A stretch of 64,000 nucleotides of DNA from Candidatus Altimarinota bacterium (GCA_024709505.1 JANJWP010000021.1:7989-71988), one strand, 5' to 3'; positions 1 to 64,000 are shown, counted from the stretch's first letter. Numbers and translations are program-made. Notes: generated from the letters alone by a model not told the origin.

Positions 1-273
1 ATAAGAGGTCGGCTGAACCCAGCCGTCAGGAATGTTCACTTTTCCGCCGTTAACGTACACGTCCACCCGGGAAGTTCCCGAAACGTAAGATTCGGAATTC
101 GCGTTGTAACGGTCCCAAAGGTGTCCTTGGAAGTTTCCATAGAAATCCACGTTCCACGTTCCTCCGTCACAATTGGAAAACGGCGCGGCGACGTTCGAGA
201 CCACGAGCGCCGAAGCCGAAGCCGGAACGAGCGTGGCAATGGCGGCGAGCGCCTGAAGAAATCGGATTTTCAT
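1..273 (-). CDS. Secreted hypothetical protein, 5' part (gene continues beyond the left edge)
   Basis: Hand translation of the minus strand from ATG 273..271 gives MKIRFLQALAAIATLVPASASA/LVVSNVAAPFSNCDGGTWNVDFYGNFQGHLWDRYNANSESYVSGTSRVDVYVNGGKVNIPDGWVQPTSY. It is open for 91 codons to position 1 and starts with a typical Sec signal peptide. It is missing from the ORF track because there is no stop inside the window. Confidence 0.5.
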   Translation of the reverse strand, partial: MKIRFLQALAAIATLVPASASALVVSNVAAPFSNCDGGTWNVDFYGNFQGHLWDRYNANSESYVSGTSRVDVYVNGGKVNIPDGWVQPTSY

Positions 274-285
274 GGCGAAGGGGTT

Positions 286-459
286 TTAAAAATCGGCGGG
301 GTTTCCCGACGGGGAAACTTCGGGGGCGGAAAAAGATGCCGGAGTGAATCCTTCTTGGGCCGCCGGAACCGGACGTTCTTCGGTTTTTCCGCAGGACGAA
401 AGGAACGTCGCGGCCACGAGCGAAACGAGAATGGTGACGCCGGTTTTCACGGTGTGCAA
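286..459 (-). CDS. Small putative lipoprotein (about 54-57 aa)
   Basis: Minus-strand ORF below the track's length cut-off. Start is TTG 459 or GTG 450: VKTGVTILVSLVAATFLSSCGKTEERPVPAAQEGFTPASFSAPEVSPSGNPADF, with TAA at 288..286. A lipobox L-S-S-C follows a hydrophobic region. An AAGGAAGG Shine-Dalgarno-like run lies just upstream of the TTG. The stop is 13 nt before the next gene's ATG. Confidence 0.4.
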   Translation of the reverse strand: MHTVKTGVTILVSLVAATFLSSCGKTEERPVPAAQEGFTPASFSAPEVSPSGNPADF

Positions 460-516
460 AGTTAGGAACCTTCCTTAGATGATAGTGAAGAAGAAAGAAA
501 GTCAACCGCTCCAACG

Positions 517-542
517 AAAGGCACCGCGAACGCGGTGCCTTT
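517..542 (-). terminator. Hairpin downstream of the 548..3550 gene
   Basis: AAAGGCACCGCG-aa-CGCGGTGCCTTT begins 5 nt after the TAA at 550..548. The T-tract on the transcribed strand is weak (TTTCGTT), so this may only be a stabilising hairpin. Confidence 0.4.
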
Positions 543-547
543 GAAGC

Positions 548-3500
548 TTAGAAGCCTCCGATCGAACCGGGAGCGACGACGTTTCCGGGGCCGGATCCAA
601 CGCCCGGGGTCGTCGTGCCTCCGGGGCCGCCGTTATTTCCTCCTCCGCCTCCCCCGCCACCTCCGACGCTGAAGGAAGCGCCGATTCCGAGATTGGTAAC
701 GTTGGTTTCCACCCGCCCCACCGGAGCGATGAGGTCGGAAGTTACCTGCGGGATTTCGGGATTGCATACGACCTGTCCGTTCGGGCCGGTCACGCAGAGA
801 TTGATGTTCTGTATGAGATAGGTGTCGTTCAAGCACTTCGCGAAGCGGGTGTAGGCGAGTTCGCTTGAGAGTTCGATATCCGGACGGAATGCGCCTTCGG
901 CCTTGGAACCGTTATTCAGGAGAAGCTTCCGCACGTCGTCCACCAATCCGATTTCCGCCGCGCCCACCGATTTCGCCTGGACATTGATCGTTTTCCGCAG
1001 CGATTCGAGAACGAACGCCGGGATTTCGGCCACGAGTTCGCGGCGGATCGCCGCATTGTCGAATTTGGTCGGTTCGACGTCCACGGCCTTGACGGTTCCG
1101 GAAACCGGAACGACGTCCTGAAAGCGTTTGTGGGATTTTCCCTGCGCGTCGATGGCGACCTGATGGAAATTGACGAAGCCGATGGCGTTCTTGATTTCGC
1201 GGGTATTTTTTTCGATGGAATCAAGCTTGCCAAGTTCCTTTGAGAATGCGGAACGGGCCGTGGAAATAGCTCCGACCGCTTCTGCTTGATCTTTTTTCGG
1301 CGTTTTTCCGAGACCGGTCTTGGCGAGGAGATTCTTGTCGAAGGTCGAACCGAGATCCCACGCGGAAGCGACGTCGGAAAGCTTGAGGTCCTTTTGGGTT
1401 CCGCGGTATCCGGTGCGGGATACGAAATCTTGGAACGCCTTCGGATCGGTCTTGATAGCATCGAAATTCCGGATGCGCCAGTCTCCGGCGGTTTCTTGCA
1501 GCACCATGTTGAGGAGTTCGCGCTTATCGGACGGCGAATCCTTGGAATGAGCGGTGGCAAGGGCCGAAAGCGGACGTTTTCCTTCGATCTTTACCGACGA
1601 AAGAAGCTTGTAAGCTTCCTCGGGGTTTCCGGAAACCGAAGCTCGCGAAATCGCCTCTTGAAGGGCGGGGATTCCGGTCGCCTTATAGCGGATATGGCGG
1701 CTCGTGATGCCCCGCATGGCGGAAACGACCTCATTGCGGAGCGCATCATTGGATTCCGCGACGTAGACGGATTCCTTCGGCTTCTTTTCGGAAACGACGG
1801 TGGAAGCATCGGAGCCCGGTTCAAAAGGAGTTTCGCTTATGACGAGCGTTTGAACCGATTCGCCACCGGCCTCAATCGAGTCGGAGACGACTTCGAGGTG
1901 GCGGAAATACAGGGGCTTGTCGCTTTTGACAACGCCGTTTTCGATTTTGAGACCCGTGCGGTTTTCCAGAACGTATTTCCGGGTCGGATCAATGGCGTAT
2001 TCGTATTTTCCTTCCGGCGTTTTTCCGAGCGAAATGCCGTAATCCGAAATGCTTCCGGAAGAAAGGCGGATGGCGTCTTGGGCAGAGAGTCCGTCAAGTT
2101 TCCCGGAAACGGCCTTCGCCGAAAGGTTCTCGCCGTTGATTTTAACGAACGCTTTGATCGGAAGAATCCCGAAGAGAAGGGCTACTCCGGCACCAAGTCA
2201 TTTGAGTTCGAATCCGGAATCCAAGCGAACGAGGCGATTGGCGAATTCGAGGAGGTTCGCGTCACGGAAAGAACGGGCCAAAACCTTATCGCGGGCGGCA
2301 TCGCCGGTACGCATCTGTTCGATGACGGCGTTGTAGGCCTTCGCTTCTTCCGGATTCGACGCTTTGGAAACGTCCATGAGGCCGGTATCCGGATTGATGA
2401 CTTCGTCGTAGGCTTTGGCGGCTTCTTTTACTTTGCCGACGATTTCGGCCTCGCGGTGGTTGAGGTTGGCGTTGGCTTCGACGACGATTCCGAGCGCCAC
2501 TCCGAAAATTTTGAGCGCCGGAGTCACGCGCAGCTCAAGGTTCGTTTTGGAATCGGAAGTCCTCCATCCGAGCTGATCGCTCTTTTTTCCGGTACGGATT
2601 TCGGAATCGGCAATCCCCTTCCGGGAACGCATTTCGAGATAGACCGGACCGAGAAGGAGTCCAAGACCGATGCCTTTCAGGGTTTCGGCGATTTCTTCGA
2701 ACGTGAGGCCCGATCCCTTCGACGCGCCTTTGGCTTCGAGGTATTCGGCGGCGGAGAAAATCTTTCCCACGAGGACGTGCTCCTTTCCGGTGAGGATGTG
2801 AAGAAGTCCTCCGGAAGCCTTTTTATCGCCGATTTTTTCGCCGACGGTGCGTTCGTAGAGTTCCGAAAGGGTCGTGAGACGGAGCGAAAGCGCCTCGACG
2901 AAACGGGTTCGGACGAATTTCGCTTCTTCTTCGTTGGCAAGGTTCAGGGGAGATCCGGCCAACCGCATGACGAGGAGGTCGAGAGAAGCCTCGTTTCCTA
3001 CGACGCGCTTGTCGGAGATAAGCTTCCGGAGCTGTTCGCGCGAAAATCCGGTCGAACGTTCTCCCTTGGAATTTTCAAAAAGGGAAGCATCGGCGAGAAG
3101 GAAGTCGCGTTTTGCCGAAAATCCGTTTTCGGAAGCCTTTTCGGAAACCTTGGGAGCCTTGGATGCCGCCGGCTTTTCGGTCGTGGCGGACGCCTCGATT
3201 TTCAGTCCCTGAAGGCGTTCCTTCAGTTCGCTGAAGAGTTCGTAAAAGTCCTTCAGTTCGCCGTTGTAGAGGGCGCGGATTTCCTTTTCTTCTCTCGATT
3301 TAAGGTTGTTGAGGGATGAAAGGCGTTCCAAAGTCGCGGTGAGCGCGGCGATTTTTTCGGGATTCGGATTGGATTCCGAACGGAGTTCCTCAGCGGCAGA
3401 ACGGAGGTGTTCCATGAGTTTTTCGGAATACCAGCGCGACTTCTTGCGAAGTTCGTCGAGCGTTACTCCGTCACGGTTCTCGTCAAGCCTCGAAACGGTA

Positions 3501-3550
3501 TCGAGAAGACCGGAATGGTCGAATGCGGCGGTTTTTTGGTTGCCTGCCAT
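548..3550 (-). CDS. Large (1000 aa) membrane-associated hypothetical protein with poly-Gly C-terminus
   Basis: Joins track ORFs 2198..3550 and 548..1717, which share a frame. The only interruption is TGA at 2200..2198, and hand translation of 1718..2197 shows no other stop. The N-terminal ~450 aa are helical. Hydrophobic segments include GIGLGLLLGPVYL, ALKIFGVALGIVV and [UGA]LGAGVALLFGILPI. The C-terminal part (~550 aa) ends in SVGGGGGGGGGNNGGPGGTTTPGVGSGPG. No family recognised. Confidence 0.7.
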
Positions 3551-3605
3551 GGGAAGGGGGTTTTATTTCTATTCCCCTCGACTCTACACCACTTTTCGTT
3601 CACGC

Positions 3606-3650
3606 GCAAAAAACCGAAAGGCCGGCCCTTTTTCGTGGCCGGCCTTTCGG
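3606..3650 (-). terminator. Rho-independent terminator after the 3667..4383 gene
   Basis: On the minus strand: CCGAAAGGCCGGCC-acgaaaaag-GGCCGGCCTTTCGG followed by TTTTTTG. It sits 17 nt after the stop codon. Confidence 0.65.
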
Positions 3651-3666
3651 ATAGAAAGCGGAGAAA

Positions 3667-4383
3667 TTAGGCCTTCTTCCGGCGGAAAGCGACGAAAGAG
3701 AGGGAAAGGAGCGCCGCGAGGGCAAGAAGGAGGAAAGATTCCGGACCGGTCTTTACGACGGTGGCCTGAGGCGGAACCGGTTTCGGCTGGGGAGCCGGAG
3801 CCGGAGCGGATTCGGCAGCATACGCGACGCATTCGTAGTGCATTTGGAGGTCGCCTTCCTTTCCGGCGGCGGAAACGTCGCGGAACGCGAGCGGAAATTT
3901 CGCGAGTCCGATGGTTTCTCCAGCGGTCTTATCGGATTTTTCAAGCGAGTAGTTGGCTCCGAGATCAGCCTCCATGAAGGTGATGGTTTTTCCCGGATCG
4001 AGAACGAATTCCTGTTTTCCGGTTCCGGTAAGGGAATCAACCCAAACCACCTCGGATCCGTACTTCCAAAAGAGCGAAGGATCGGAAGGATTGGATTTCC
4101 AAGAAACCCCTTCCCCACCGAGATTCACCATTTCGGGATAGACTTGTTCGTCCTTGTAGGCAATTTGTTCGGTATCGTTCTTGTTCGTCCAAGTGTCATA
4201 GAGACCGGTGATCTTTTGTCCTACGGCAACCTTGCCTCCGTCGAAACACTGGTTGCAGTTGTTGGCGGCGAAAAATGACGCGGTGGAGCAATCGACTTCC
4301 TTATAATCGCTCGGAAGAGCGAAAGCCGAAGAAATCGCAAAGAGCGAGAGCGTAGCGGCGAGAGCGAGGAACGAAGCCTTCAT
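3667..4383 (-). CDS. Secreted protein with a C-terminal sortase-type sorting signal (non-canonical motif)
   Basis: Track ORF 3667..4473 trimmed to the Met before a signal peptide (MKASFLALAATLSLFAISSAFA). The C-terminus has a Pro/Ala linker (APAPAPQPKPVPPQ), then VVKTG, a hydrophobic stretch (PESFLLLALAALLSLSFVAF) and a RRKKA tail. No TGA. Confidence 0.65.
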   Translation of the reverse strand: MKASFLALAATLSLFAISSAFALPSDYKEVDCSTASFFAANNCNQCFDGGKVAVGQKITGLYDTWTNKNDTEQIAYKDEQVYPEMVNLGGEGVSWKSNPSDPSLFWKYGSEVVWVDSLTGTGKQEFVLDPGKTITFMEADLGANYSLEKSDKTAGETIGLAKFPLAFRDVSAAGKEGDLQMHYECVAYAAESAPAPAPQPKPVPPQATVVKTGPESFLLLALAALLSLSFVAFRRKKA

Positions 4384-5068: not shown

Positions 5069-8000
5069 TTGCGCACCGTTTTGGAACCGAAAGCCTACTC
5101 GGGATCGGGGAACGCCTTTTCCCGGTCCTTTTTGGTCGGGGAAATCCGCGATTCGAAAATTCTCCACGTGTTCGATACCCAGTCGGCGGCGCGGCATTTC
5201 GCCGACGTTCGGAAATACGTCAAAACGATTTCGGGCGCGGGAGAATCGTCGGACGTCACGCTCATATCCGATGACGCGGGAGTTTTCGACTTCGCCTGCG
5301 CAAGCGCGGGAGAATTCGTTTCGACGTACGCCATCTTCGAGAAAAAACGGTTTTCGCCCTACCTCCTCTCAAAAAAATCCTTGCGCGTTTCGGTGGGCGA
5401 CCGATTGACCGAACGGGATTTCGTCTCGAAACTCCTCTCGTTCCTCTATGCGTTTGCCGAATATTCCGCCGATCCCTGAACCTACCGCCGCGATGGCGAC
5501 ACCGTAACGGTACGAACCGCGAGGGAACGGGTCATCGTAAGTTTTTTCGATGGCGAAATTGATTCGGTGTCCGTTTCGTCCCCGGAAGGAGGAAAACCCC
5601 GCCCCATGGGAACGTTCGTTTTCCCGGACCGGAATCCGGGAGACCGGTTTCCGGATTCCTTGGAGCAGCCGGGCGCTTCCGTAGCCGAAGGCTCCCTGAC
5701 GATTTTCCACGATCCCGATTTCGCCCCGCATTTTCCGGAAATCCGCAATTCCCTTGCGGATTGCGTGACGTTTTGGGGAATCGCCCATGGCGACGGAGAG
5801 GATTTGGGAATCCGGGACGCGGAACCGAAAAGCGAAGCCGAACTCCTTTCGATCTTGCGCGACGGAAGCGCGAAAGTCCGAATCTTTTCGAAACGCCCGG
5901 AGAGCGTGGAGGCGCTCTTTTCGGAGGAAGCGGGGCCTTCCTTCTCGGCTGGTCCTCGAGTCGGGCGGACCGACGGAACCGCAGCGACTTCAACCCTGTT
6001 AGGAGCCAGGTCCGCCGGTCCGTCCGACGACTCTGCGGAGGCCATCGAATGAAGCTCCGCTTCCTCCGGACGAGACCGAATCCGCTATTTCGTTCCGCCG
6101 AAGGGAATCCGTCTCGCGAGCTTCGTCGCGCAAGATCGGGACGGAAGCTTGGAATGGTTTCTCTCCGACGACGTTCTCTCCCCCCTGTTCGCCAAGGAAC
6201 GGACGGGCAAGACCGTTGCCGACCGGATGGACCTCCTACTAAAAATTTCTCCCGGAGATTATGTCGTCCATCGCGATCATGGAGTGGGAATATTTCACGG
6301 TACCGAAAAAAAATCCCTCGCTTCCGGAGAACGGGAATTCATCAAGATCGAATATGCCGGGGGCGACTCTCTCTTCGTCCCCCTTTCGGAAGCATTTCGA
6401 ATCAGCAAATACTTGGGGGAAGACCGTCCGAAACTCCAAAAACTCGGCGGTACCGAATGGAAAAAAGCCATTGAACGGGCCGAAGAGGATGCCGAAAAGG
6501 TGGCGAGGGAACTGCTCGACATCTACGCGAAACGCAAGCTTGCTGAACGTCCGCCAAACGTCGCGTTCGAATCGGAAGAATCACGGTTTAAAAAAGCCTT
6601 TCCCTACGAACACACCGCCGACCAAGGCCGCGCGATCGAAGAAATCCTCTCGGATATGGAAGGAAGCGAACCCATGGACCGCCTCCTTTCCGGTGACGTC
6701 GGGTTTGGTAAGACCGAGGTTGCGATGAACGCGGCCTACCGTGCGGCGCTCAATAGGCGGCAAACGGCCTTCGTTTCGCCGCTCGTCGTTTTGGCCTACG
6801 AACACTTCGAATCGCTTGCCAAGCGATTCGAACCGTATGGCATAAAGGTCGCCGTCCTTACCCGTTTCACGCGCGAAGCGGAAGAACGACTCATTCTCAA
6901 AGGACTCAAGGATGGAACCATCGACATCATCGTGGGAACCCACCGGCTCCTTTCGACCGACGTGCGGTTCAAAAACCTGGGGCTTCTCGTCGTTGACGAA
7001 GAACACCGTTTCGGCGTTTTGGACAAGGAAAAAATCGCGGCGTTCCGCGAGAACGTGGACATCCTCTCCCTTTCGGCAACCCCCATCCCCCGAAGCCTGA
7101 ACCTCGCGCTTTCGGGAGTGCGGAAAGTATCGCTCCTCACCACTCCCCCCCCAAGGAAAAAACCCATCGTCACAAGCGTTTCGAGATGGGAAAAATCACT
7201 CGTGGGAAATGCTATCGGCGCCGAAATCGATCGCGGAGGACAAGTGATCGTGCTCCATAACCGGGTGAAAACCCTTTCGAAGATCGAAGACGAAATTCGA
7301 ACCGCCTGCGCTCCGAGAACGCTTAAAATCGCGACCGTCCACGGGCAGATGTCGGGAACCGAACTCGAAGACCGCATCCTCGAATTCAAGCACGGGGATT
7401 TCGACGTGCTCCTTTCGACGACCGTCGTCGAAAACGGGGTGAATTTCCTGCGGGCCAACACCATTCTCATCGACGAAGCCGACGAATTCGGCCTCGCCTC
7501 GCTCCACCAACTGCGCGGGCGCGTCGGAAGAAAGGATGCGCAGGCATATTGCCACCTTTTATATCGGAAGGAGGCCCTTCCCGATGACGCGAAACGGCGT
7601 CTCGTCGCCATCGCGAGCAATTCGCACCTTTGAGCCGGATTCGAAATCAGCATGCGTGACCTCGAAATCCGTGGAGCGGGCGAAATTCTCGGGCTCAAAC
7701 AATCGGGAAAAACCAAGGAAACGGGACTTCCCCTCTATTTCCGCCTCCTCGAAGAAAAGGTCGCCGAACTTTCAAGCGGGAAACGGAAACCGCCCGAAAC
7801 CAAGATCGAACTCGACTTCGCGTATGGAATTCCCGATGTTTTTTTCGACTCGGAAATCGACAAGCTCCACTTCTTCCGTTCGCTCGAATCGGTGCGCGAC
7901 GAAGACGAACTCGATTTTGCCAGAAACGGATTTTTCGAAGGCCGAGAAAGGCTCCCTGAAAACGTCGAAAACCTCTTTTTGCTCGTCCGAGCAAGGATCC

Positions 8001-8221
8001 GGTTGTCAAAATTGAAGGTCGCCTCGCTTCGCAAAACGGGAAATTCGTACGTTTTCGAGTTCGCGGCCGGAACGGAAGTGGACGATCTCCGGAAGTTTCT
8101 CGAAATCGACCGGAACGGAACATTCGTCTTTACGGGAAACGGAAAAATCCGCGTCGGAACGGACGAATATTCGGGAGACCTCGATTTCCTGAAAAAAACG
8201 GTAGAATCCTGTTCGAAATAG
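5069..8221 (+). CDS. mfd: Transcription-repair coupling factor
   Basis: Joins 5069..5479, 5567..6052, 6149..7633 and 7652..8221 in one frame, with in-frame TGA at 5477, 6050 and 7631. It has a TRCF/CarD-type motif (GDYVVHRDHGVGIF), helicase motifs (GDVGFGKTEVA, VVDEEHRFG, LSATPIPR, QLRGRVGR) and HL[UGA]AGFEISMRDLEIRGAGEILG. The TTG start at 5069 is uncertain. Confidence 0.9.
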
Positions 8222-9384: not shown

Positions 9385-10272
9385 ATGAACAAGAAACTCT
9401 TCGTCGGCGCATTGGCCGCGGCGTTGCTCCTCGCCTCCTGCGGAAAATCCGCGCAAACTCCCGAAAATTCGTCGGCATTCCCTTCTTCGGTCACTCCGGC
9501 TTCCGAACGGGTCGCCAAAGAAGGCGACACCGTCGCGGTCAATTACGTTGGCAAGCTTGAAGACGGCACTATTTTCGACACCTCGATAAAATCGATTGCC
9601 GAAACGACGCCGAAGTTCAACCCCAACCGCGACTACTCGCCCCTCCTTTTCACGGTGGGCGCGGGACAAATGATCAAGGGATTCGACCAAGGAGTGCTCG
9701 GCATGAAGGTCGGGGAGAAAAAAACCCTCCGAATTCCGCCCGAAGAAGCCTACGGGACCGGAGGGACCGAAGAAGTCGTTCCCCGTAAAGCGCTTGACGA
9801 CCAGTTCAGCGAAACGGTTCCGCGCGAAAAATACCAGGATGTTTTCGAGGTAACGGTTCCAGAAGCAACTTTCAAGGACCAAGGAAACGAGGTGCCGAAA
9901 ATGGGCGAAACCATCACTGCCGGCGGCGTTTCGGCAAAGGTTACCAAGGTCGAAGGCGGCAACGTCACCCTCGACGTCGAAAACCGTCAGAACCCTTTCT
10001 ACGGCAAGAAGCTCGCCGTGGGGCTCGAAGGCGATTTTGAAGGAAACAAAGTAAAAATTACGAGACTCGACGAAAAGAACGTGACGGTCGAGGTAACCAA
10101 CCGTCAGAACCCTTTCTACGGCAAGAAGCTCGCCGTGGGGCTCGAAGCACCAATTGGGGGCGAGCGTTTCGTCATCAAGAAAATCGACGAAGATACCGTC
10201 ACCCTTGAGCGTTCGCACGAACTTTCGGGCAAGACGCTCGTCTTCGAAGTCGAACTCATGGAAATCAAGTAA
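9385..10272 (+). CDS. FKBP-type peptidyl-prolyl cis-trans isomerase lipoprotein with duplicated insert
   Basis: Lipoprotein signal (MNKKLFVGALAAALLLASCG). FKBP core: GDTVAVNYVGKLEDGTIFDTS, LLFTVGAGQMIKGFDQGVLGMKVGEKKTLRIPPEEAYG. The C-terminal region has a duplicated NRQNPFYGKKLAVGLE segment. The TAA overlaps the trmD ATG (TAATG). Confidence 0.85.
   Translation: MNKKLFVGALAAALLLASCGKSAQTPENSSAFPSSVTPASERVAKEGDTVAVNYVGKLEDGTIFDTSIKSIAETTPKFNPNRDYSPLLFTVGAGQMIKGFDQGVLGMKVGEKKTLRIPPEEAYGTGGTEEVVPRKALDDQFSETVPREKYQDVFEVTVPEATFKDQGNEVPKMGETITAGGVSAKVTKVEGGNVTLDVENRQNPFYGKKLAVGLEGDFEGNKVKITRLDEKNVTVEVTNRQNPFYGKKLAVGLEAPIGGERFVIKKIDEDTVTLERSHELSGKTLVFEVELMEIK
9982..10147 (+). repeat. 49-nt perfect direct repeat inside the FKBP gene
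   Basis: aaccgtcagaaccctttctacggcaagaagctcgccgtggggctcgaag occurs at 9982..10030 and again at 10099..10147, identical by eye. It encodes NRQNPFYGKKLAVGLE twice. Confidence 0.85.
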
Positions 10273-15491: not shown

Positions 15492-15779
15492 TTAGCGAAT
15501 TCGAAGCGTAACGATTCCCCCCTTGCCAAACCGAGAGAGGATTTCCGCAAACGCCGACCGTATTTTTCCCGACCGGAGCTTAAGCGCGCTCGCCACCAAA
15601 GGTCAGGAGGTTTTGATAACGATTTTTCCGTCGGACTCGCAGATCGAATCCACTCCTGCGAAAAGTGCCGCCTCCCCTTCCTCCTCAAGCACTTTCCGGA
15701 GGGTCGAGGAAAGGAGCGCGGAAACCGCGGCCGGCTTGGAAAGCACCGGAGAAAAATTCACGTTCCTTACGAAGGCCAT
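15492..15779 (-). CDS. Small protein, possibly DUF721/DciA-like (95 aa)
   Basis: MAFVRNVNFSPVLSKPAAVSALLSSTLRKVLEEEGEAALFAGVDSICESDGKIVIKTS[UGA]PLVASALKLRSGKIRSAFAEILSRFGKGGIVTLRIR. The in-frame TGA is at 15605..15603 and the TAA at 15494..15492, 1 nt before the PLD ATG. The family call rests only on general layout. Confidence 0.4.
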
Positions 15780-17210: not shown

Positions 17211-17215
17211 GGCGT

Positions 17216-18858: not shown

Positions 18859-18859
18859 G

Positions 18860-20044: not shown

Positions 20045-20052
20045 GGGGGAAA

Positions 20053-37942: not shown

Positions 37943-37945
37943 CCC

Positions 37946-54249: not shown

Positions 54250-55635
54250 TTAAAAATTAACCCCAAGAGCCGAGACGAAAAGGAACGCCACGGTTGAAAA
54301 TACTCAAAACGATCCCCAATTGCGAACTTGTTTGAAACAGAACGCTAAAAACGAAAGCGCGGCCAACGCGAAAACGAAACGGTGGGGGGATTCTTTTGAA
54401 AGCGCGAACGACGCAATCGGAAGATACGCCGAATAAAAGAGCGCGTACATAAAAAGGGAATACGTGAAAAAATCCCCGGTGGAACGACAGAGGAAAAAGA
54501 ACGATTCCGAATATTTCGATACCCCGCGCTTTAATTTCACGTAGGAAACCGACCGATTTTTAATTCGATTGCCAAGGAGTTCAATGTTTTGATCCACCAG
54601 TTTCCGTTTTACGAGAAGCCGTTCTTTTTTTTCTCCCTTCAACTTGAAAAAACCTCGCAGGAGTTCGCGGTTGATTTCGGTTTTTTTCGCTTCGTAAGCC
54701 TTAAGTTCACGAACATTTTTAAAATACAGAAATTCATTGGAAGAACTTTCCGCATTTCCAGAAGTTGGATTTCACCCCCCTTTTCCGGATAGGTAGTTTT
54801 CCCGAAACGTTTTCCAGAGGGTTTTTGCTTGAACGACAAAATCGTCTTCGGGAAGAACGATCCTTTTTCGCGAACCTATTTCCCGAAGGAGCACGTTGGT
54901 TTGCCCGAGAGCTTCTTTTTTTTCGGTAATGAAGCCTTTTTCGATGAGTTCAATTTCCAATTGTCCGATTCGGTCGAGGGCCGTTTCGCCTACAATTCTC
55001 AATTTATCCGGATTGGTGATGTTCTTCAATTGCCGGAGTTGGGTAGCCAATTCTTTCAACCGAAAAATCCGGTCTTCCGTGAATTTATCGGAATGACGGG
55101 CAAGAAGGAATTCGATTTTGACGACGATTTTTTCGATGAGCGCATGGTATTTCAATACTTGACGGGCAAGTACGGAAGTTGGATCATGGACTGCCGGATC
55201 GGCGTCCGGTCATTTTAAAGTCTGCGCCTCTTTCGACGGTTGGGATTTCTCTTTCGGTCCATGATCCTTAAATACCGCGTACATTTCGCGAATACGGTTG
55301 GTGAAGAATTTTTTTTCTTCCTCACTCGCTCCCGGATTGTCACAAATAGAAAGGACCTTGTAATGGAGATCGTCAACGAGTTTTATGTAGGCCTTGAAAG
55401 AATCTTGCGATTTTATTTGCCCGCTTTTCCGTTTCCCCTCGACTTCTATCTCAAAATAAAACGTTGAAAGAGAGGGATCTTCGTTCTTTTCCGAAGTTCA
55501 TTCCGTTTCGCGAATTTCGATAATGGCAAACCCCTGATTATGGAGTTCGGACTTCGCCTCCTCAAGCGTCGGTCTCGAAATGGAGAGCTCGACGCGTTGG
55601 CCGTTTTTCGAACATACCGCGATGAAATTTGCCAT
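54250..55635 (-). CDS. Hypothetical protein (461 aa): two small N-terminal beta-alpha-beta-like modules, a helical region and a C-terminal TM bundle
   Basis: Hand-stitched from ATG 55635 through TGA at 55500..55498, 55212..55210, 54774..54772 and 54306..54304 to TAA 54252..54250. It includes track ORFs 54772..55155 and 54304..54642. The N-terminus MANFIAVCSKNGQRVELSISRPTLEEAKSELHNQGFAIIEIRE resembles the extreme N-terminus of PilC/GspF proteins, and a second similar unit follows (FYFEIEVEGKRKSGQIKSQDSFKAYIKLVDDLHYKVLSI). The rest is not GspF-like. Confidence 0.55.
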
Positions 55636-56477: not shown

Positions 56478-57866
56478 ATGTCCGGGTTATTGACGGAGGT
56501 CTTCCGAAAATTCAAAAATTCCATGCATTTTTCAAAATCGAAACGTCTCATTTCCTCTTTGGCGGTAATCGCTTATTGCGTCGGAGTTCTTTCCGCTCCG
56601 TACGTAAAAACGGCGTTTGATCGATACGTATTCGATCATAACGTTTCCGAAATTCAAAAAAAGATCGTCGAATCAGGAGGTTCCGTTCGGGATTTGGGAA
56701 GGTTGAATGAGGCCTTTGCCATACTGCGCGACAATTACTACGGTTTCAATACCGTTTCCAACAACGATCTCGTTTCCGGGATGATTTCCGGAATGGTCGA
56801 AGCTTTAGGCGATCGTCACAGCGAATATTTTGATCTTGATGAAACGAAAAAATTCAACGAGGCAATATCCGGGGATTTTGAGGGTATTGGCGCCGTGGTT
56901 GATGAAAGCGAATTCGGAGTCGTCGTTAAACAGATTCTCGCCGGCTCTCCGGCAAAAGAGGCCGGAGTCCTTTCTTGAGACATCATTGCCAAAGCGGGGG
57001 GACATAAATTGGAATGATTGAGTTTGGGCGATGCCATCGAACATATCCGTTGACCGGCCGGAACGGTCGTGGAATTGGAGATTTTTCGAACGTGAGAGTC
57101 TGCGCCAATCCTGAAAGAAGTCACGAGAAGGAAGATTACGGTACCTTCGGTGCAAGGGGAAATGGTTGAATCGGACGGCGTGAAAATCGCCCACGTTACG
57201 CTTTCGATGTATGGTGAAAAAACCGCGATGGAATTTTTGAAAATCTACGCGGAATTGCGATCTCAAGGAGCTGAAGCCCTTATTCTTGACCTTCGGGATA
57301 ACGGAGGGGGGCTCCTTGAAACGGCGGTGAACGTGCTTTCGAATTTTATCGAAAGGGATAAAGTCCTCGTAACGACAAAAGAACGCAACCCATTTTTAAA
57401 TCGCTCGTATTTTTCTTACGGTCCCGGAGATATTTCGGTTCCGGTAGTGGTGCTCGTGAACGAAAACACCGCTTCGGCATCAGAAATTACGGCCGGAGCC
57501 CTGAAGGATTATGGAAAAGCTGTAATCGTTGGGGTAAATACGTATGGGAAATGATCGGTACAACAACCCTTTCCCCTCTCGGACGGAAGTGAAATGAAGA
57601 TCACCGTTGCCAAATGGTACACTCCTTTTGACCACGGAATCGACAAGGTGGGAATTAGCCCCGACGTTGTGGTTGAATTTCAGAAACAGGATTTTGAAAA
57701 TCGCTACGACCGGCAGCTCGAAGAAGCCAAAACGGTGGTGAAAAAGCTTTTAAAATCCGGTCGAGACCAAGTGCTTTCAGAATATTTTCAGCGAGCTCAA
57801 ACTGAAAAACAGGAACGAAAAAATGGAGGATCATCTTCTGGAAGTTTGCTCCAAAACGAAAAATAA
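56478..57866 (+). CDS. ctpA: C-terminal processing (S41) peptidase
   Basis: Joins 56478..56978, 57150..57554 and 57594..57866 in one frame. TGA at 56976, 57015, 57051, 57093 and 57552. PDZ: GIGAVV...[14 protein letters not shown][UGA][10 protein letters not shown][UGA][10 protein letters not shown]. Catalytic region: [32 protein letters not shown][UGA]SVQQ. Confidence 0.85.
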
Positions 57867-57877
57867 CCCCTGCTATC

Positions 57878-59125
57878 ATGGACATTTTTGACAAACTTCG
57901 ACGGCAAGACCCCGAAATCGCATCGGCAATAGATTCCGAAGAGCGGCGGCAAGAACTCGAAATCGAGTTGATCGCGAGCGAAAATTACGTTTCGGAGGCC
58001 GTTCTTGCCGCCAATGCCTCAGTCTTTACGAATAAGTATTCCGAAGGATATCCAGGAAAGCGTTACTATGCCGGACAAGCGAACGTCGATACAATCGAAA
58101 CCTTGGCCATAAACCGAGCAAAGGACCTTTTTGGAGCCGAATATGCCAATGTCCAACCCCTTTCCGGATCCCCGGCTAACCTTGCCGTGTATTTGGCACT
58201 CCTTTCTCCTGGAGACACCGTGCTTGGGATGAGTCTCGATCAAGGAGGGCACCTTTCACACGGTCACCCGCTCAATTTTTCGGGGCTCTTGTACCGAATC
58301 GTTTCTTATGGGCTGAACCGTGAAACCGAACGCATCGACATGGATGAAGTTGAACGGGTGGCAACGTTGGAAAAGCCGAAAATGATTATCGCCGGGTTTT
58401 CGGCGTATTCCCGGGATTTGGATTGGAAGCGCTTCCGGGAAATCGCTGACAAAGTCGGGGCCTATCTCATGGCCGACGTGTCCCATATTGCCGGATTGAT
58501 CGTTTCGGGTGTGCTCGAAAATCCAGTTCCGTATTGTGACGTAGTGACTACGACCACCCATAAAACCCTTCGCGGCCCCCGGGGAGCGCTCATTCTTTCG
58601 AAGGCTGAATTCGCCGACAAAATCGCCCGAGCGGTTTTTCCTGGGGTTCAAGGATGACCGCACGAACATACCGTTGCCGCCAAGGCCGTGGCTTTTTTGG
58701 AGGCCTCTACCCCCGAATTTCGGCAGTATGCCCGAAACGTCGTTAATAATGCCCGTGCGCTCTCAACGGAATTAATGGATCGAGGATTTCGCGTCATATC
58801 GGGAGGAACCGACAACCACCTATTCCTTCTCGACGTGTTTGGTTCGAAGGGGGTTACCGGAAAAGAAGCGGAAAAAGCGCTTGAGAAAGTGGGGATATCG
58901 GTCAACAAGAACATGATTCCGTATGATCCGCGAAAACCCCTCGATCCTTCTGGAATCCGAATGGGCACTCCGGCAGTTACGACCCGAGGAATGGGCGTGG
59001 ACGAAATGCGGATTATCGCGAGAATCGTGGAAGAAGCCGTTCTTATGAGGGATGATGAGTCTAAATTGTCGAAGTTGTCCGAAGAAGTCCGGGAACTTTG
59101 TAAAAAATTTCCTATTTACCAATAG
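57878..59125 (+). CDS. glyA: Serine hydroxymethyltransferase
   Basis: Joins 57878..58657 and 58688..59125 through TGA 58655..58657. [43 protein letters not shown][UGA][13 protein letters not shown] (family FPGxQGGP). Confidence 0.95.
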
Positions 59126-59830: not shown

Positions 59831-61255
59831 TTAGGGGGAGGCGGAGATTTTTCGAGCCGAAAGAACGAGAAAAAACCCCGTTCCGAGAACGGCGAGTGTT
59901 TCAATCGAGGGGGATTCCAATACGATGGACGAGAATGTCCATCGGGAAGCGAAATCGGAAACCGCATTCATCCAAAACAACGCTCAATAGCCGATTGCGG
60001 CAAACATCGTGGCCGGCGCGTGAAGTTCGAGTCATTCGAAAATCAGCGCGGCTAAAGTTGGCATGACTGAGAACGCTAAAACGGGAACGACCAATACGTT
60101 TGACAAAATGGACAGGGTCGAGAACGTTTGAAATGAAGCGGCCGATACCGGAATGGTAGCCAGGGTTGCCGCGAGCGTGGCGGAAACCGTTTCTCGAATG
60201 GAGAAACGTTTCGGTACGAATGCGAGAGCGGCGGAAGCCCCCGTCGAAAGCGTTGTGATTCCGAGGGTTGCCGAAAAAGAAAGGAGAAAAGAAGCGCTTC
60301 ATCCGATGGACGGATCAATGAGTACCATGAGCGTTCAAGTACCGAAAAGCACGGGTACGGCATCGCACCGGAAGTAGGGTTCGGCAACGGTTGAAACCGT
60401 CGCCATGATCGCCGCGCGAATGATGGGAATGCCGTATCCGGCAAGGGCCGCATACCCCCATATCCCTAAAATCAGTACGAAAAATCTTGGAATGTTCGCC
60501 ATCCTTTTGGCAAATATGGCAAGGATTCATGAAAATGCCGCGACGTTTCCCCCGCTTGCGACCACCAGATGTGAAAGTCCGCTTTTTCGATAGGATTCGG
60601 AATCTTCTTCGGAAATTCCGGTTCCGTCTCAAAAGAGGATTCCCCGTGCCAATCCTGATTCCCGGCGGGGATACAGCTCCTCAACGATGTTTCCCAAACG
60701 TTCTCGGATTTTTGTGAAAAGCCCGCTTTGGGAAAGGCGCTCCGCCCTTTCGAAACGAAACGTCGGATAGGGGGAGTATTTTGAAACGACCCGTTTTCCC
60801 CGTGTGACTCGAACGGAACTTCCTTCGGAAACGCGGTCGAGCGGGGCATATATCCGCACTACGGCTTGCCCAGGAAAAGCGGTCCCGTTTATCGAAAGGA
60901 TTTTCAGATCAAACCCCGAAGTCCTCGTCGCTACGATTTTTCCGGTTAACTCTTCGGTTCCGTTCGAAGGGTTTTTGAGGGCGGCTTCGAATTTGGCCAT
61001 ATTTTCCGAACGCAATTCCGACCAAATCGAAATTGCGAGCAAAAAGGCGCAAAACCCGAGCGACCAGGCTTTGAGAATCGGTATTTTTCGAATGTTCGAA
61101 CCCAAAACGAACGCAAGGGCGACGCCAAGGGAAGCGAACGTTCCAAAAACACCCCAAACGCTCCATCCTACCGAAGCGGAAATGGTAGAAGCGCAAAAAA
61201 CGACGAAGAAAAGCTTCGAAGTTACTCGGGTTTGGCGATCATGTTCGCGAATCAT
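59831..61255 (-). CDS. comEC: ComEC/Rec2-family DNA internalisation channel, short form without beta-lactamase-fold domain (474 aa)
   Basis: Track ORF 60629..61255 extended by full hand translation through TGA at 60631, 60529, 60337, 60301, 60034 and 59986 (upper coordinates) to TAA 59833..59831. N-terminal TMs plus an OB-like insert (LTGKIVATRTSGFDLKILSINGTAFPGQAVVRIYAP). LARGILF[UGA]DGTGISEEDSESYRKSGLSHLVVASGGNVAAF, then a further TM bundle. The ATG overlaps the lgt 3' end by 34 nt, so the start is uncertain. Confidence 0.8.
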
Positions 61256-61989
61256 CGGATTGCCAAAAGCAGGCAGACGACCGCCATGATCTGCGTCAAA
61301 TTAAGAAAGAAAATGCTTTTAAGAGAATCTTCGGCCCCGTTCCAAAATTCTCCGATGAGAAGGACCGGTGCGAACGCCGCGATACCCAAATATCCAATAA
61401 GCCCGTCAATTTTTACGAACGCCGCACGGGCGATGTAAAAAATGACGAAGTAGAGGAAACAGAAAAACGAATAGATGAGCGCGAGAGGAATTACCGGCGA
61501 AGTGTAGGGATTTGCGCTTTCGGGCTCGGAATAGGTTATTCCAAACGGGAGCGTCGTGGGTTTTCCGTATACCTGTCCTCCGAGGAACGCTCAAAGATAT
61601 CCGATGATTCCCGCGAAAAAAAACGCGAGAATGACGGCGTCAAGGTATTTGTCGAGCGCAAGCTTATGTTTTTTCAGCCGGTAGACGAGCACGAGAAAAA
61701 ACCCGAACGCCCCTCATGCGAGCGAGAAATGGTAGTCGGAGGTGATAAAAAATCGAACGAACCCGTCAGAAACGACGTCCCGCCATTCCGAAAGCAGGTA
61801 GAAGAGCCGGGAAAACACGAAAGACGAAACGAAGAAGGAAAAAACGTTCCCGATGAAGAAATTCGTGTTGATTCCGAGTTTTCCCGAAAGCTTGTGGAGC
61901 ATTCAGAAAAAAAGCAGGAACGAAATCGACAGCGCGATTCCGAAGGTGTAGACGGTTATCCCGAAAGGGAGTTCGATTTGGGGGTACAT
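61222..61989 (-). CDS. lgt: Prolipoprotein diacylglyceryl transferase
   Basis: Hand-stitched from ATG 61989 through TGA at 61905..61903, 61716..61714, 61593..61591 and 61254..61252 to TAA 61224..61222. MYPQIELPFGITVYTFGIALSISF, [UGA]GAFGFFLV, FFFAGIIGYL[UGA]AFLGGQVYGKPTTLPFGITY (Lgt GR.GNF.N.E.YG.PT motif region). Only 61714..61902 is in the track. Confidence 0.75.
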
Positions 61990-62019
61990 GCCGGATTTTA
62001 ATACTAAACCGAACCGCTC

Positions 62020-63555
62020 TTAACGGGCGTATTCGACGACGCGTTTTTCGCGGATGAGGTTGACTTTCACTTCTCCCGGATAGGAGAGGTTCGCTTCGAT
62101 GGTTCCGGCAATTTCTCCGGCGAGTTTTTCCGCTTCGAGGTCGGAAACGGTATCGGCATCGACAAAAATTCGGACTTCCCGACCGGCCGAGAGAGCGTAG
62201 GCTTTCGAAACGCCCGAGAAACTCATGGCGAGATTTTCCATTTCCTGGATCCGCTTCACGTATTCTTCCGCGTTCATGCGGCGGGCGCCCGGACGAATGG
62301 CGCTGATGGCGTCGGCGATTTGAACGATCTTCGTTTCGATGCAGATTGCGGGGACGTCGTCGTGATGTCCTTCGATGATGTTGACGATACGTTCGTCGAG
62401 GCCGTATTTCCGAGCGATTTTCCCTCCGATTTCCGGATGGGTTCCTTCGATATCGTGGTCCATGGCCTTCCCGAGATCGTGCAGAAGTCCTCCCTTGAGG
62501 GCAAGGGCCGGATCGGCACCAATCTGTTTTGCGATGGCTTCCGCGATGTAGGCCACTTCCTTCGAATGCATGAGGATGTTTTGTCCGTAGCTCGTGCGGA
62601 AGCGGAACTTTCCAATGAGCGGAATGATTTCGTCGGGAATTCCAACGACTCCCATTTCGTTGACGGTCTTTTCGCCGAGATCGTAGATGAGTTTTTCCGC
62701 TTCCTTCTGATTTTCTTCGACGATTTCTTCGATGCGCGCCGGTTGGATGCGCTTGTCTTCGATAAGGGCTTCGAGGGATTTTTTCGCAATGTAGCGTCGG
62801 AAGAGGTCGAAACTTGAAAGGAAGACGGTATCCGGAGTGTCGTCGATAATGAGGGAGACGCCCGTCGAGCGTTCGAACGCGACGATGTTGCGGCCTTCCT
62901 TGCCAATAAGTTTTCCTTTGACGTCGTCAGACTCCAGCTTGACCATGGTCTGGGTCATTTCAGCCGTAACGTCCCCGGCGTATTGTTGGATGGATTTGAC
63001 GAGGATTTCTTGGGAAAGCTCACGCTCGCGCAACTTGAGTTCGGTGCGTTTTTTTCCCATGAGTCCGAGAATGTCCTTTTCGTAGCGTTCCTCCACCTGT
63101 TTAAGCAGGAGTTCTTTGGCGGTCTTTTCGTCCATTTTGGACACTTCGGACAACTTTGACCGCAATTCGTCTTTCAAGCGTTCTTGGGCATCTTTTAGGG
63201 CCGAAAGTTCCTGCTCCCGTTCGCGGAGGGAGTTTTGACGATGGTCGAGTTCTTCAAGCTTCCGATCGATGCGTTCGTCTTTTTCGACGACGCGGGCCTC
63301 TATTTCTTCGATTTTTTTCTGACGCTCCCGCGTTTCGCGACGTTCGTCTTCGATCTTTCTGCGTTCTTCTTCGAATCGCTCCCGTGCTTCGTCCTGTCTT
63401 CGGCGGGCTTTTTCTTCGGCTTCTCGGATGATGGAGTCTGCTTCGATTTTGGCTTTTTCGAGGGATTCGGCATTCCTTTTCGTCGCAAGGAAGTACGTCG
63501 CCCCCGCGCCCGCACCCCCCGCAAGGAGGATGCCGACGATGAGTTCCGGAGTCAT
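62020..63555 (-). CDS. rny: Ribonuclease Y
   Basis: N-terminal TM (LIVGILLAGGAGAGATYFL), long coiled coil, KH domain (GKLIGKEGRNIVAFERSTGVSLIIDD), HD domain (GGLLHDLGKA...IIEGHH). No TGA. Start trimmed to MTPELIV (ATG 63555). Confidence 0.9.
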   Translation of the reverse strand: MTPELIVGILLAGGAGAGATYFLATKRNAESLEKAKIEADSIIREAEEKARRRQDEARERFEEERRKIEDERRETRERQKKIEEIEARVVEKDERIDRKLEELDHRQNSLREREQELSALKDAQERLKDELRSKLSEVSKMDEKTAKELLLKQVEERYEKDILGLMGKKRTELKLRERELSQEILVKSIQQYAGDVTAEMTQTMVKLESDDVKGKLIGKEGRNIVAFERSTGVSLIIDDTPDTVFLSSFDLFRRYIAKKSLEALIEDKRIQPARIEEIVEENQKEAEKLIYDLGEKTVNEMGVVGIPDEIIPLIGKFRFRTSYGQNILMHSKEVAYIAEAIAKQIGADPALALKGGLLHDLGKAMDHDIEGTHPEIGGKIARKYGLDERIVNIIEGHHDDVPAICIETKIVQIADAISAIRPGARRMNAEEYVKRIQEMENLAMSFSGVSKAYALSAGREVRIFVDADTVSDLEAEKLAGEIAGTIEANLSYPGEVKVNLIREKRVVEYAR

Positions 63556-63739
63556 GTGATGGTCGTTAAGAGTTGCCCACTTGGGCGTTGAATGGAGTTT
63601 TTCTGACGCTCTTCGCACCGGAATAAGGAATTCCGGGCAGGGACACTATACCCGAAACGCGCGAAAGTCAACCGGCCGGACCGATTGCCGAACTTGTATT
63701 TCGCGGAAAATCCGCTATACGGAGGATACGGAAAAAACT

Positions 63740-64000
63740 ATGAAAAAATTCTTTTGCACGGAGTGTTCCTATCTTTATCGTCCGGCTTTCGGCGAAGAGG
63801 AGATGGGAATTCCGCCGGGAACCCCCTTTGAAACGGTCTCCGAAACGTTCCGCTGTCCCTCTTGCGGCGCGTCGGAAGAATTTTTCCATGCCGCCCGGGA
63901 GCACGTGAACGAACCACTCGAGCGCGACGATTTGTCCGACGAAGAATTTTCCCACGTTCCCCGTTATCGCCAAACTGATTCCGGAATTCTCGTTCGAATC
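63740..64000 (+). CDS. Rubredoxin-domain protein, probably fused to a superoxide-reductase-like domain (3' end outside the window)
   Basis: ATG 63740: MKKFFCTECSYLYRPAFGEEEMGIPPGTPFETVSETFRCPSCGASEEFF (rubredoxin CxxC...CPxC pattern), followed by ...EEFSHVPRYRQTDSGILVRI, which resembles the KHVP start of neelaredoxin/desulfoferrodoxin iron domains. Open to the window edge and not in the track. Confidence 0.55.
   Translation, partial: MKKFFCTECSYLYRPAFGEEEMGIPPGTPFETVSETFRCPSCGASEEFFHAAREHVNEPLERDDLSDEEFSHVPRYRQTDSGILVRI

Follow-up and report, generated by a model that had tools for sequence, protein, structure and literature searches.

UGA as a probable glycine codon in 64 kb of DNA from a relatively GC-rich member of the Gracilibacteria

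The window analysed here is a stretch of 64,000 nucleotides with a GC content of 53%. Genes were called with a self-trained codon-usage model in which TAA and TAG were the only stops. The call returned 52 genes, which together take up 92% of the window, and 73 in-frame TGA codons were found in 26 of them. An earlier, sequence-only reading had arrived at the same count, from which our gene call was independent. The positions quoted there also coincided with called codons, both on the plus strand (glyA 58655, mfd 7631, trmD 10746) and, allowing for either end of the codon, on the minus strand (uvrA 51370–51372 and 50191–50193; fmt 17456–17458 and 17285–17287; rlmH 27726–27728). The genes with in-frame TGA and the tRNAs of the window are the following.

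548–3550, minus strand: G03, 1000-aa protein; TGA 2200 (first base); from the gene call
5069–8221, plus strand: mfd, transcription-repair coupling factor; TGA 5477, 6050, 7631
10272–10931, plus strand: trmD; TGA 10653, 10746
15492–15779, minus strand: G13, 95-aa ORF; TGA 15605; from the gene call
17216–18157, minus strand: fmt, methionyl-tRNA formyltransferase; TGA 17458, 17377, 17287
18860–20044, minus strand: Glycos_transf_4 (MraY/WecA-type) membrane transferase; TGA 19405, 19393, 19162, 19129, 19018
20053–20814, minus strand: VTT/DedA-type membrane protein; TGA 20466, 20292
20926–22353, minus strand: G20, Pro/Ser/Ala-rich protein; TGA 21294; from the gene call
26929–27561, minus strand: G26; TGA 27219, 27213
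27552–28136, minus strand: rlmH, SPOUT methyltransferase; TGA 27977, 27728
28188–28486, plus strand: tRNA cluster Thr(UGU)-Tyr(GUA)-Leu(UAG), the window's only tRNAs (ARAGORN, Rfam)
28872–29831, minus strand: T4SS_pilin-like membrane protein, family taken from relatives' orthologues; TGA 29093, 28988
29941–32868, minus strand: VirD4-like (T4SS-DNA_transf) ATPase, paralogue 1 (G30); TGA 32757, 31161
33020–34525, plus strand: comM, Mg-chelatase-like competence ATPase; TGA 33062, 33248, 33683, 33692, 33869, 33872, 33875, 34298
34608–35666, minus strand: Sigma70_r4/HARE-HTH-type regulator, family taken from the orthologue in the related locus L082; TGA 35114
35761–36378, minus strand: G33, membrane protein; TGA 36213, 36174
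36494–37942, plus strand: pilin-like protein with an N_methyl motif (Pfam N_methyl); TGA 36911, 37124, 37475, 37601, 37679
37946–38866, plus strand: G35; TGA 38558
38866–39885, plus strand: RluD-like pseudouridine synthase; TGA 39265, 39769
40959–43367, minus strand: VirD4-like ATPase, paralogue 2 (G38); TGA 43127, 41534, 41228
49378–52248, minus strand: uvrA; TGA 51372, 50394, 50193
53032–54246, minus strand: G43, polytopic membrane protein; TGA 53715, 53148; from the gene call
54250–55635, minus strand: G44; TGA 55500, 55212, 54774, 54306; from the gene call
56559–57866, plus strand: ctpA/ctpB-type S41 C-terminal processing protease; TGA 56976, 57015, 57051, 57093, 57552
57878–59125, plus strand: glyA, serine hydroxymethyltransferase; TGA 58655
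59831–61255, minus strand: comEC (Competence domain); TGA 60631, 60529, 60337, 60301, 60034, 59986
61222–61989, minus strand: lgt, prolipoprotein diacylglyceryl transferase; TGA 61905, 61716, 61593, 61254

The 51 complete genes ended in TAA (31) or TAG (20) and in no other codon, as the sequence-only reading had held for the genes mapped in it. This result is partly by construction, since the gene caller permitted no other stop, and it is backed by the coding density of 92% and by full-length homology. Under table 11, a greedy call broke the window into 71 ORFs (median 192 aa); once TGA counted as sense, the number fell to 45 and the median rose to 340 aa, in agreement with the fragmentation claimed earlier. 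Twelve genes had a span supported by homology (UvrA, SHMT, ComM, TrmD, Fmt, RlmH, CtpA, RluD-like, Mfd, ComEC, Lgt, and the Glycos_transf_4 transferase). The 44 interruptions within these spans were all TGA; neither TAA, TAG, nor a frameshift occurred, exactly the pattern that had been described. TGA makes up about 58% of the off-frame stop triplets inside genes. If the 44 interruptions were random nonsense mutations, then by our own arithmetic all of them would be TGA with a probability of about 0.58^44, or about 4e-11.

Next, the TGA sites were compared with the columns of standard-code homologues. Among the 27 testable sites, 18 fell on columns of glycine, which were mostly invariant, two on Gly/Ala columns, seven on variable and hence uninformative columns, and none on a Trp column. 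Every TGA on a conserved column thus stood on a glycine column. In uvrA, all three TGA codons corresponded to G in the UvrA of two species (PDB 2r6f, 9gxk), and the alignment ran through them as one unbroken stretch of 943–947 residues (residues 7–949). For comM, 80 diverse standard-code homologues were used: both Walker A codons (33683, 33692) aligned with G in 80/80, the triple run at 33869–33877 with G in 80/80, 80/80, and 79/80, and 33248 with G in 76/80, while 33062 was an A/G column and 34298 was variable (K/G/A). Glycine was also found at glyA 58655 (FPGVQG[X]P; three PDB SHMT structures, and GGC in locus L160), at mfd 7631 (HL[X]AGF; E. coli Mfd, PDB 6x26 and 2eyq, and one standard-code locus), at trmD 10746 (RLLP[X]; three PDB TrmD structures and four loci), and at rlmH 27728 (FLVG[X]AYG; three PDB RlmH structures, and GGN in three relatives). 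A conserved glycine had been proposed for these last four sites, for uvrA 51372 and 50193, and for the Walker A and triple-run codons of comM. Four of the five ctpA codons (57015, 57051, 57093, 57552) were G in B. subtilis CtpB (PDB 4c2c), and 56976 was N. The remaining sites of trmD (10653; V/K/A/D) and rlmH (27977; Q) were variable, and mfd 5477 and 6050 lay within the variable N-terminal part of the protein.

For three motifs, the glycine assignment proposed earlier needs to be qualified in part. In fmt, LE[TGA]KK (17287) stood, being G in three PDB Fmt structures, and 17377 was variable; PWP[TGA] (17458) was matched by GGG, GGA, GGA, and GGG in four Gracilibacteria relatives, but by Met, Met, and Val in three gammaproteobacterial structures. 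The VHP[TGA] of the RluD-like synthase (39265) corresponded to G in E. coli RluD, with A in a second PDB synthase and in six loci, so that its column is Gly/Ala rather than strictly Gly; the second site of this gene, 39769, was variable, and relative L087 had GGA at both. The Walker A motif GKSG[TGA]GKS of VirD4-like paralogue 1 was recovered, but its TGA (31161) occupies the x-position, where L082 has TGA, L090 has ACA, and paralogue 2 has ACG (Thr); this column is variable and uninformative.

The other genes were read through with Pfam spans, relatives, or the gene call. As had been claimed from the window's own paralogues, TGA 41534 and 41228 of VirD4-like paralogue 2 were each GGC in paralogue 1; in L090 and L082, the former was GGT or GGA and the latter GGT or GGC. 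TGA 32757 of paralogue 1 was GGC in L082. In the Glycos_transf_4 gene, whose family was assigned from PF00953 matches on relatives' orthologues and whose protein found no match in a PDB search, each of the five TGA codons was GGN in L081 and in L084, the two syntenic relatives. A single stretch of PF03772 (residues 207–466) spanned all six TGA codons of ComEC, and the Pfam LGT domain covered residues 10–244 of the 255 of Lgt. The VTT_dom of the VTT/DedA-type protein covered both of its codons, where relatives had GGA, TGA, or GAC. For the T4SS_pilin-like gene, the codon in relatives was GGG or GCG at 29093; at 28988, it was GGA or GGT. At 27219 and 27213 of G26, L082 had GGA and TGA, respectively. 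L087 had GAC and GGA at the two G33 sites (36213, 36174), AAT, GGG, AGT, GGT, and GGA at the five pilin-like sites in ascending order, and TTT at the G35 site, a variable column. A Pfam search of G13, G43, and G44 gave no match.

The comparison with related loci covered 40 of the 73 window TGA sites and provided 64 codon pairs. The partner was GGN in 41 pairs, TGA in nine, another codon in 14, and TGG in none. At 7 of the 40 sites, at least one related locus had TGA, with mostly GGN elsewhere. In the opposite direction, 262 TGA codons of other loci were matched by window GGN in 205 cases and by window TGG in two. For BipA alone, twelve recoded relatives contributed 232 TGA codons, 209 of them at a window GGN and none at TGG. 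UGA is exchanged synonymously with GGN in the relatives, and not with TGG. A small Codetta-style tally over all codons, of the kind that had been suggested, likewise gave G for TGA in 6/6 conserved columns; all other codons with at least three columns were read as standard. UGA is shown here to be a sense codon for glycine, with UAA and UAG as the sole gene ends, as the sequence-only reading had concluded.

BipA showed 78–82% identity to several proteins that bear the name "Candidatus Gracilibacteria bacterium", and likewise to ACD_78C, labelled "uncultured bacterium (gcode 4)". The region was syntenic with the NCBI Gracilibacteria MAG GCA_028685185.1, the two sharing the gene order BipA-sortase-RlmH-tRNA(Thr,Tyr,Leu)-L31, and the BipA protein of that MAG has G at 33/33 of its TGA codons. 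Identity and synteny together support the placement of the window in the Gracilibacteria, in line with the earlier deduction from the code (Gracilibacteria or SR1/Absconditabacteria). Because two "Gracilibacteria" species are reported to keep UGA as a stop (Shulgina & Eddy, PMC8629427), lineage alone is insufficient, and it is the aligned columns and codons that establish the assignment of UGA to glycine. Overall, the window is very probably a piece of the chromosome of a Gracilibacteria (BD1-5) member with a fairly high GC content (53%), belonging to the Candidate Phyla Radiation and translating by table 25. With the standard code, an ORF or gene track splits 26 of its ~52 genes into same-frame pieces, and every annotation of the contig needs to be redone with table 25.

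ARAGORN and Rfam found no tRNA(UCA) within the 64-kb window, and the loci of its closest relatives contain none either; the Thr-Tyr-Leu cluster recurs in relatives L082, L084, and L168. Neither prfA nor prfB lies within the 64 kb. The gene at 15767–16450 codes for a PrmC-like methyltransferase, which is not diagnostic for release-factor loss. A more distant recoded relative, L092 (BipA identity only 69%), has a 76-nt tRNA(UCA) at 7190–7265, adjoining a tRNA-Gly(GCC). It carries G1:C72, C2:G71, G3:C70, and U73, the criteria for tRNA-Gly(UCA) in PMC8629427, and it differs from tRNA-Sec in its short variable arm and in an acceptor stem of 7 bp. If the window's genome follows the established pattern of its lineage, UGA would be read by a tRNA-Gly whose anticodon is UCA, and GlyRS would charge it with glycine through the three acceptor-stem pairs and the discriminator U73. 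Release factor 2 would have been lost, so that competition at UGA would be absent, and RF1 would terminate at UAA and UAG.

We then weighed other readings of UGA. The least improbable of them, though we consider it very unlikely, is dual or context-dependent decoding, in which UGA is mostly glycine yet acts as a stop or in translational coupling at some sites. The last TGA of lgt (61252–61254, residue 246) overlaps the comEC start codon in a classic ATGA arrangement, the Pfam match of Lgt stops at residue 244, just ahead of it, and UGA is rare and missing from likely highly expressed genes. However, this is a single site, expected as the relic of an ancestral stop, and the established model of the lineage, without RF2, leaves no terminating factor at UGA (PMC8629427).

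Less probable still is that UGA encodes tryptophan. This code, table 4, is known from Mycoplasmatales/Entomoplasmatales, from Hodgkinia, Nasuia, Zinderia, and Stammera, insect endosymbionts among its users, and from some Eggerthellaceae (PMC8629427, PMC13462651). There too a stop codon has become sense and table 11 ORFs fragment likewise; in-frame TGA and TAA/TAG-only ends fit it equally well. The low share of Trp(TGG) codons in the window, 0.61%, would rise to a normal 0.98% with TGA added, and one close public homologue is labelled "gcode 4". But the lineage is another, and the amino acid is glycine: Trp occupied 0/27 TGA columns against 18 for Gly, TGG was the partner in 0/64 pairs, TGA of other loci met window TGG in 2/262 cases against 205 for GGN, and the L092 tRNA(UCA) has glycine identity elements, with U73 instead of the Trp-type G73. 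As far as the aligned columns go, table 4 is refuted.

Equally improbable is the standard code, under which the TGA codons would be real stops in pseudogenes or split genes, sequencing or assembly errors, or sites of occasional readthrough. At the GC content of the window, table 11 ORFs still cover 87.5% of it, so nothing in a naive track is obviously amiss. This reading has to contend with 44 interruptions in 12 essential or conserved genes that are all TGA, with TGA recurring in relatives at 7/40 covered sites (9/64 pairs) where the partner elsewhere is mostly GGN, and with TGA on invariant catalytic glycines, e.g., in the ComM Walker A and the CtpA K-G; column evidence refutes it. Selenocysteine has a negligible probability and is refuted by the columns, which are Gly and neither Cys nor Sec: ARAGORN tags any tRNA(UCA) as "SeC", but the 73 sites lie in 26 ordinary genes, none recognised as a selenoprotein family, and the L092 tRNA has the canonical form described above.

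The recoding of UGA to glycine is already known (PMC8629427, PMC4032931, PMC11452946), as the earlier reading had stated. Table 25 is the code of Gracilibacteria/BD1-5 and Absconditabacteria/SR1 (Hanke et al. 2014, PMC4032931); Campbell et al. 2013 and Rinke et al. 2013 are the works that PMC8629427 cites for it. The window is no different in kind from these systems, which it resembles in its in-frame UGA at conserved glycine columns, its UAA and UAG terminators, and its phylogenetic neighbours named Gracilibacteria; a tRNA(UCA) with G1:C72, C2:G71, G3:C70, and U73 is carried by relative L092. Within the same super-lineage, an additional reassignment, of CGA/CGG to Trp, is reported in Absconditabacteria and may extend to some Gracilibacteria (PMC8629427). 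It was not seen in the window, where CGG (289 uses) and CGA (153 uses) are both common and, in a small sample of conserved columns, mostly matched Arg (7/9 and 4/5, respectively).

The GC content of 53% is at the top of the 0.21–0.53 range given for the two phyla (PMC8629427), and the locus of a close relative, L081, reaches 61%. UGA is rare among the glycine codons of the window (73/1492, or 4.9%; 3.7 per 1000 codons) and absent from its likely highly expressed genes, whereas it accounts for 57–75% of glycine codons in AT-rich relatives of 26–33% GC. Only these codon-usage points, the 53% GC and the 4.9% share of TGA, are mildly new.

In the window, UGA is read as a glycine codon, and the genes end at UAA or UAG. 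Genes were called in the 64,000 bases (53.3% GC, zero N) with a codon-usage model that was trained on five seed genes, iterated, and allowed to stop only at TAA and TAG. This self-trained caller was adopted because greedy longest-ORF calling selected antisense shadow ORFs at 53% GC, e.g., 479-3670 (+). Its 52 genes take up 92% of the window, and 26 of them contain in-frame TGA codons, 73 in total. The sequence-only reading had counted the same 73 codons in 26 genes, and its positions in uvrA (51370-51372 and 50191-50193), glyA (58655), mfd (7631), trmD (10746), fmt (17456-17458 and 17285-17287) and rlmH (27726-27728) coincide with those of our independent call. Of the 51 complete genes, 31 are closed by TAA and 20 by TAG, the only stops that the caller permits.

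Under the standard code (table 11), a greedy call yielded 71 ORFs (median length 192 aa), and with TGA as sense it yielded 45 (median length 340 aa); the gain was much smaller when TAG or TAA was freed in place of TGA. Inside genes, TGA occurs 3.7 times per 1000 codons in frame, versus 12-14 times in both off-frames. A standard-code annotation misrepresents half of the genes on the contig: UvrA, Mfd, ComM, ComEC, CtpA and others come out truncated and would be taken for pseudogenes or fragments, and the contig needs re-annotation with table 25 (UGA as glycine). The ratio of ORF length or coverage between table 11 and TGA as sense was not used as evidence for the window. This ratio works as a recoding test at low GC, but it reached 1.3-2.5 in GC-rich comparison loci (L134-L165) that are presumed to use the standard code (BipA identity 54-56%), and density heuristics are therefore unreliable at the GC of the window.

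The amino acid at TGA was read from alignment columns. Each TGA was masked as X, and the protein was aligned to homologues from standard-code organisms. For comM, these were 80 standard-code sequences from a contig search, which came from many phyla and were all distant; with matches of at most 47% identity, that search named no lineage. The tblastn confirmation in that search probably applies the standard code, under which recoded relatives would fall into fragments.

Residues opposite masked TGA codons in standard-code homologues
uvrA, 3 TGA: G at 3/3 in UvrA of two species (PDB 2r6f, 9gxk), in a single continuous alignment of ~945 residues
glyA (SHMT), 1 TGA: G in three structures
comM, 8 TGA: Walker A sites, G in 80/80 and 80/80; TGA-TGA-TGA run, G in 80/80, 80/80 and 79/80; remaining three, one G in 76/80, one A/G column and one variable
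trmD, 2 TGA: RLLP[X], G in three structures and four loci; second site variable
fmt, 3 TGA: LE[X]KK, G in three structures; PWP[X], M, M and V in gammaproteobacterial Fmt; third site variable
rlmH, 2 TGA: FLVG[X]AYG, G in three structures; second site variable (Q)
ctpA/ctpB type, 5 TGA: G at four, including GK[X]S beside the catalytic lysine; N at one
mfd, 1 of 3 TGA compared: HL[X]AGF, G in E. coli Mfd
RluD-like, 2 TGA: VHP[X], G in E. coli RluD and A elsewhere; second site variable

Over the 27 testable sites, the column was glycine at 18, glycine or alanine at two, variable at seven and tryptophan at none. Two fmt motifs had been put forward as conserved glycines; LE[X]KK is one, while PWP[X] is not in the gammaproteobacterial proteins, although it is GGN in four Gracilibacteria relatives. 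PDB searches with the Glycos_transf_4 membrane transferase (GT4) and Lgt returned no match, and codon comparison with relatives and Pfam were used instead. A small Codetta-style tally of all codons, restricted to columns with conservation of 80% or more in standard-code homologues, placed TGA on G in 6/6 columns; each of the other codons that had three or more columns kept its standard meaning. A change of CGA and CGG to tryptophan has been reported for Absconditabacteria and is suspected in some Gracilibacteria (PMC8629427). Both codons are common in the window (CGG 289 uses, CGA 153), and in a small sample of conserved columns they aligned with arginine in 7/9 and 4/5 cases, respectively, so that, in contrast to Absconditabacteria, this change was not seen.

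Relatives were retrieved with BipA/TypA (22589-24391), which contains zero TGA; a look-up of the exact protein gave no record. Its best protein matches (92-94% identity) came from MAGs, and those at 78-82% included several 'Candidatus Gracilibacteria bacterium' proteins and ACD_78C, 'uncultured bacterium (gcode 4)'. The syntenic loci of these relatives and 80 metagenomic BipA loci were compared with the window codon by codon through tblastn alignments. One or more related loci aligned at 40 of the 73 window TGA sites, giving 64 partner codons: 41 GGN, nine TGA, 14 others and zero TGG. Conversely, 262 TGA codons in other loci were aligned with the window, and 205 (78%) lay opposite GGN and two opposite TGG. 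For BipA by itself, the sequences of twelve recoded relatives contain 232 TGA, 209 of them at window GGN codons and none at TGG. At all five TGA positions of the GT4 transferase, both close relatives have GGN. Within the window, the TGA codons at 41534 and 41228 of VirD4-like ATPase paralogue 2 each lie opposite GGC in paralogue 1, as the sequence-only reading had argued; its Walker A site in paralogue 1 is threonine in paralogue 2, which makes that column uninformative. The glycine assignment itself is upheld by columns and codon partners alike.

In the established model, UGA would be decoded by a tRNA-Gly(UCA) and RF2 would be absent. No release-factor gene lies within the 64-kb window, and its only tRNAs form one cluster:

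28188-28486, +, tRNA cluster Thr(UGU)-Tyr(GUA)-Leu(UAG), between rlmH and the L31 gene; kept in the relatives L082, L084 and L168

No tRNA-Gly(UCA) was found near BipA in nine closer relatives (L081-L088, L118) or in L167 and L168. Among 46 tRNAs of the fetched related loci, one has the anticodon UCA (L092, 7190-7265). It is canonical, 76 nt long, scores 43.4 bits against Rfam, and carries G1:C72, C2:G71, G3:C70 and U73, the criteria for calling tRNA-Gly(UCA) (PMC8629427). A tRNA-Gly(GCC) follows 20 nt downstream of it (7190-7362 for the two tRNAs), and BipA ~2.7 kb downstream. L092 is a clearly recoded metagenomic relative, with ORF coverage of 52% under table 11 versus 92% with TGA as sense. 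Since its BipA identity is only 69%, this tRNA bears on the clade and not on the genome of the window. In another locus, L110, a tRNA-Gly(GCC) occupies the same relative position at the contig start.

Four other readings of the in-frame TGA codons were considered. A residual dual use of UGA, as glycine and occasionally as stop, is very unlikely, with one suggestive site in the window. There, the final TGA of lgt (61254-61252, -) shares an ATGA with the start codon of comEC (region 61222-61255), and the Lgt Pfam match stops two residues ahead of it; read as glycine, this TGA lengthens Lgt by nine codons, to a TAA at 61224-61222. The ATGA may be left over from an ancestral overlap of stop and start. 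Reading UGA as tryptophan (table 4) is compatible with composition, which was uninformative as a discriminator, TGG making up 0.61% of codons and 0.98% if TGA is added; it is ruled out by the column and codon evidence. Pseudogenes or sequencing errors are ruled out as well: the interruptions are TGA only, fall on invariant glycines, and are kept as TGA or GGN in relatives. In 12 genes with homology-backed full spans across the interruptions there are 44 in-frame TGA, zero TAA or TAG and zero frameshifts, and the chance of such an all-TGA set under random nonsense mutation is ~4e-11 by our own arithmetic (TGA being ~58% of off-frame stop triplets). Selenocysteine is excluded by the glycine columns and the tRNA architecture.

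Having UGA as glycine in a Gracilibacteria genome is, in our judgment, nearly certain. L168 (NCBI GCA_028685185.1, Candidatus Gracilibacteria bacterium) shares with the window the order BipA, small ORF, sortase, RlmH, tRNA Thr/Tyr/Leu and L31, and the deposited protein of its BipA has G at 33/33 TGA codons. The code is known for Gracilibacteria and Absconditabacteria (PMC8629427, citing Campbell 2013, Rinke 2013), has proteomic evidence in a BD1-5 bacterium (PMC4032931), and has been called a 'trademark characteristic' (PMC11452946). Because the code of the lineage is established in this literature, the recoding is already known, as had been stated from the outset, and the contig is an ordinary member of the lineage. 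The recoding can be used to mark the lineage and to flag contamination or binning problems. Since UGA as glycine is such a trademark, the case adds nothing to mechanism; it has some modest value in that it documents the GC-rich, UGA-poor end of the code-25 range.

GC content in Gracilibacteria and Absconditabacteria has been quoted as 0.21-0.53 (PMC8629427), which puts the window (53%) at the top; the locus of a close relative, L081, has 61%. Among code-25 relatives, the share of TGA in glycine codons drops steeply with rising GC: 57%, 62% and 75% in L094, L163 and L168 (26-33% GC), 15-26% at 37-44% GC, 4.9% in the window and ~1.5% in L081, where gene calling is poor (eight genes). The 33 TGA codons of BipA in L168 compare with none in the window. 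TGA is over-dispersed among window genes (the observed value is reached in 8/5000 permutations). Five genes have TGA at 15-18% of their glycine codons:

18860-20044, -, GT4 transferase
33020-34525, +, comM
lgt
comEC
54250-55635, -, protein gene G44

No TGA occurs in the genes for BipA, RRF, L31, RNase Y and a 1181-aa SLH surface protein (43647-47192, -; 0/98 glycine codons). This uneven use could reflect expression level or recent acquisition. That the window represents a GC-rich Gracilibacteria subclade in which GC pressure purges UGA(Gly) seems to us improbable; UGA is already absent from genes that are likely highly expressed. If it were true, the lineage would be a natural intermediate drifting to unassigned UGA, recapturable, e.g., as a stop, and a counter-example to code-25 organisms being AT-rich. 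The GC and TGA trends are codon-usage observations inside a known system.

The window is rich in genes for DNA uptake and surface apparatus, which lie in the following spans:

18157-18858
24591-25133
28872-32868, including VirD4-like ATPase paralogue 1 (29941-32868, -)
33020-34525, comM
36494-38866
40959-43367, -, VirD4-like ATPase paralogue 2
59831-61255

The set includes comEC, comM, a T4SS_pilin-like protein and three pilin-like proteins with N-terminal methylation or shufflon-type motifs, and the two VirD4-like paralogues share 50% identity over 442 aa. The window also encodes a sortase (25592-26653) and a surface protein with an SLH domain. Six small ORFs had no Pfam match. An ORF overlooked by the gene caller (52336-52977, -; 213 aa, TGA-free) fills the gap beside uvrA; it had no Pfam match at E <= 0.001, and a 15-residue C-terminal stretch looks like a ComF/phosphoribosyltransferase-type motif. 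In L167 (GCA_028713325.1, Gracilibacteria), an RVT_1 reverse transcriptase and a bAvd-like gene lie beside a 727-aa Fib_succ_major/N_methyl protein (16140-20358), an arrangement that resembles a diversity-generating retroelement cassette.
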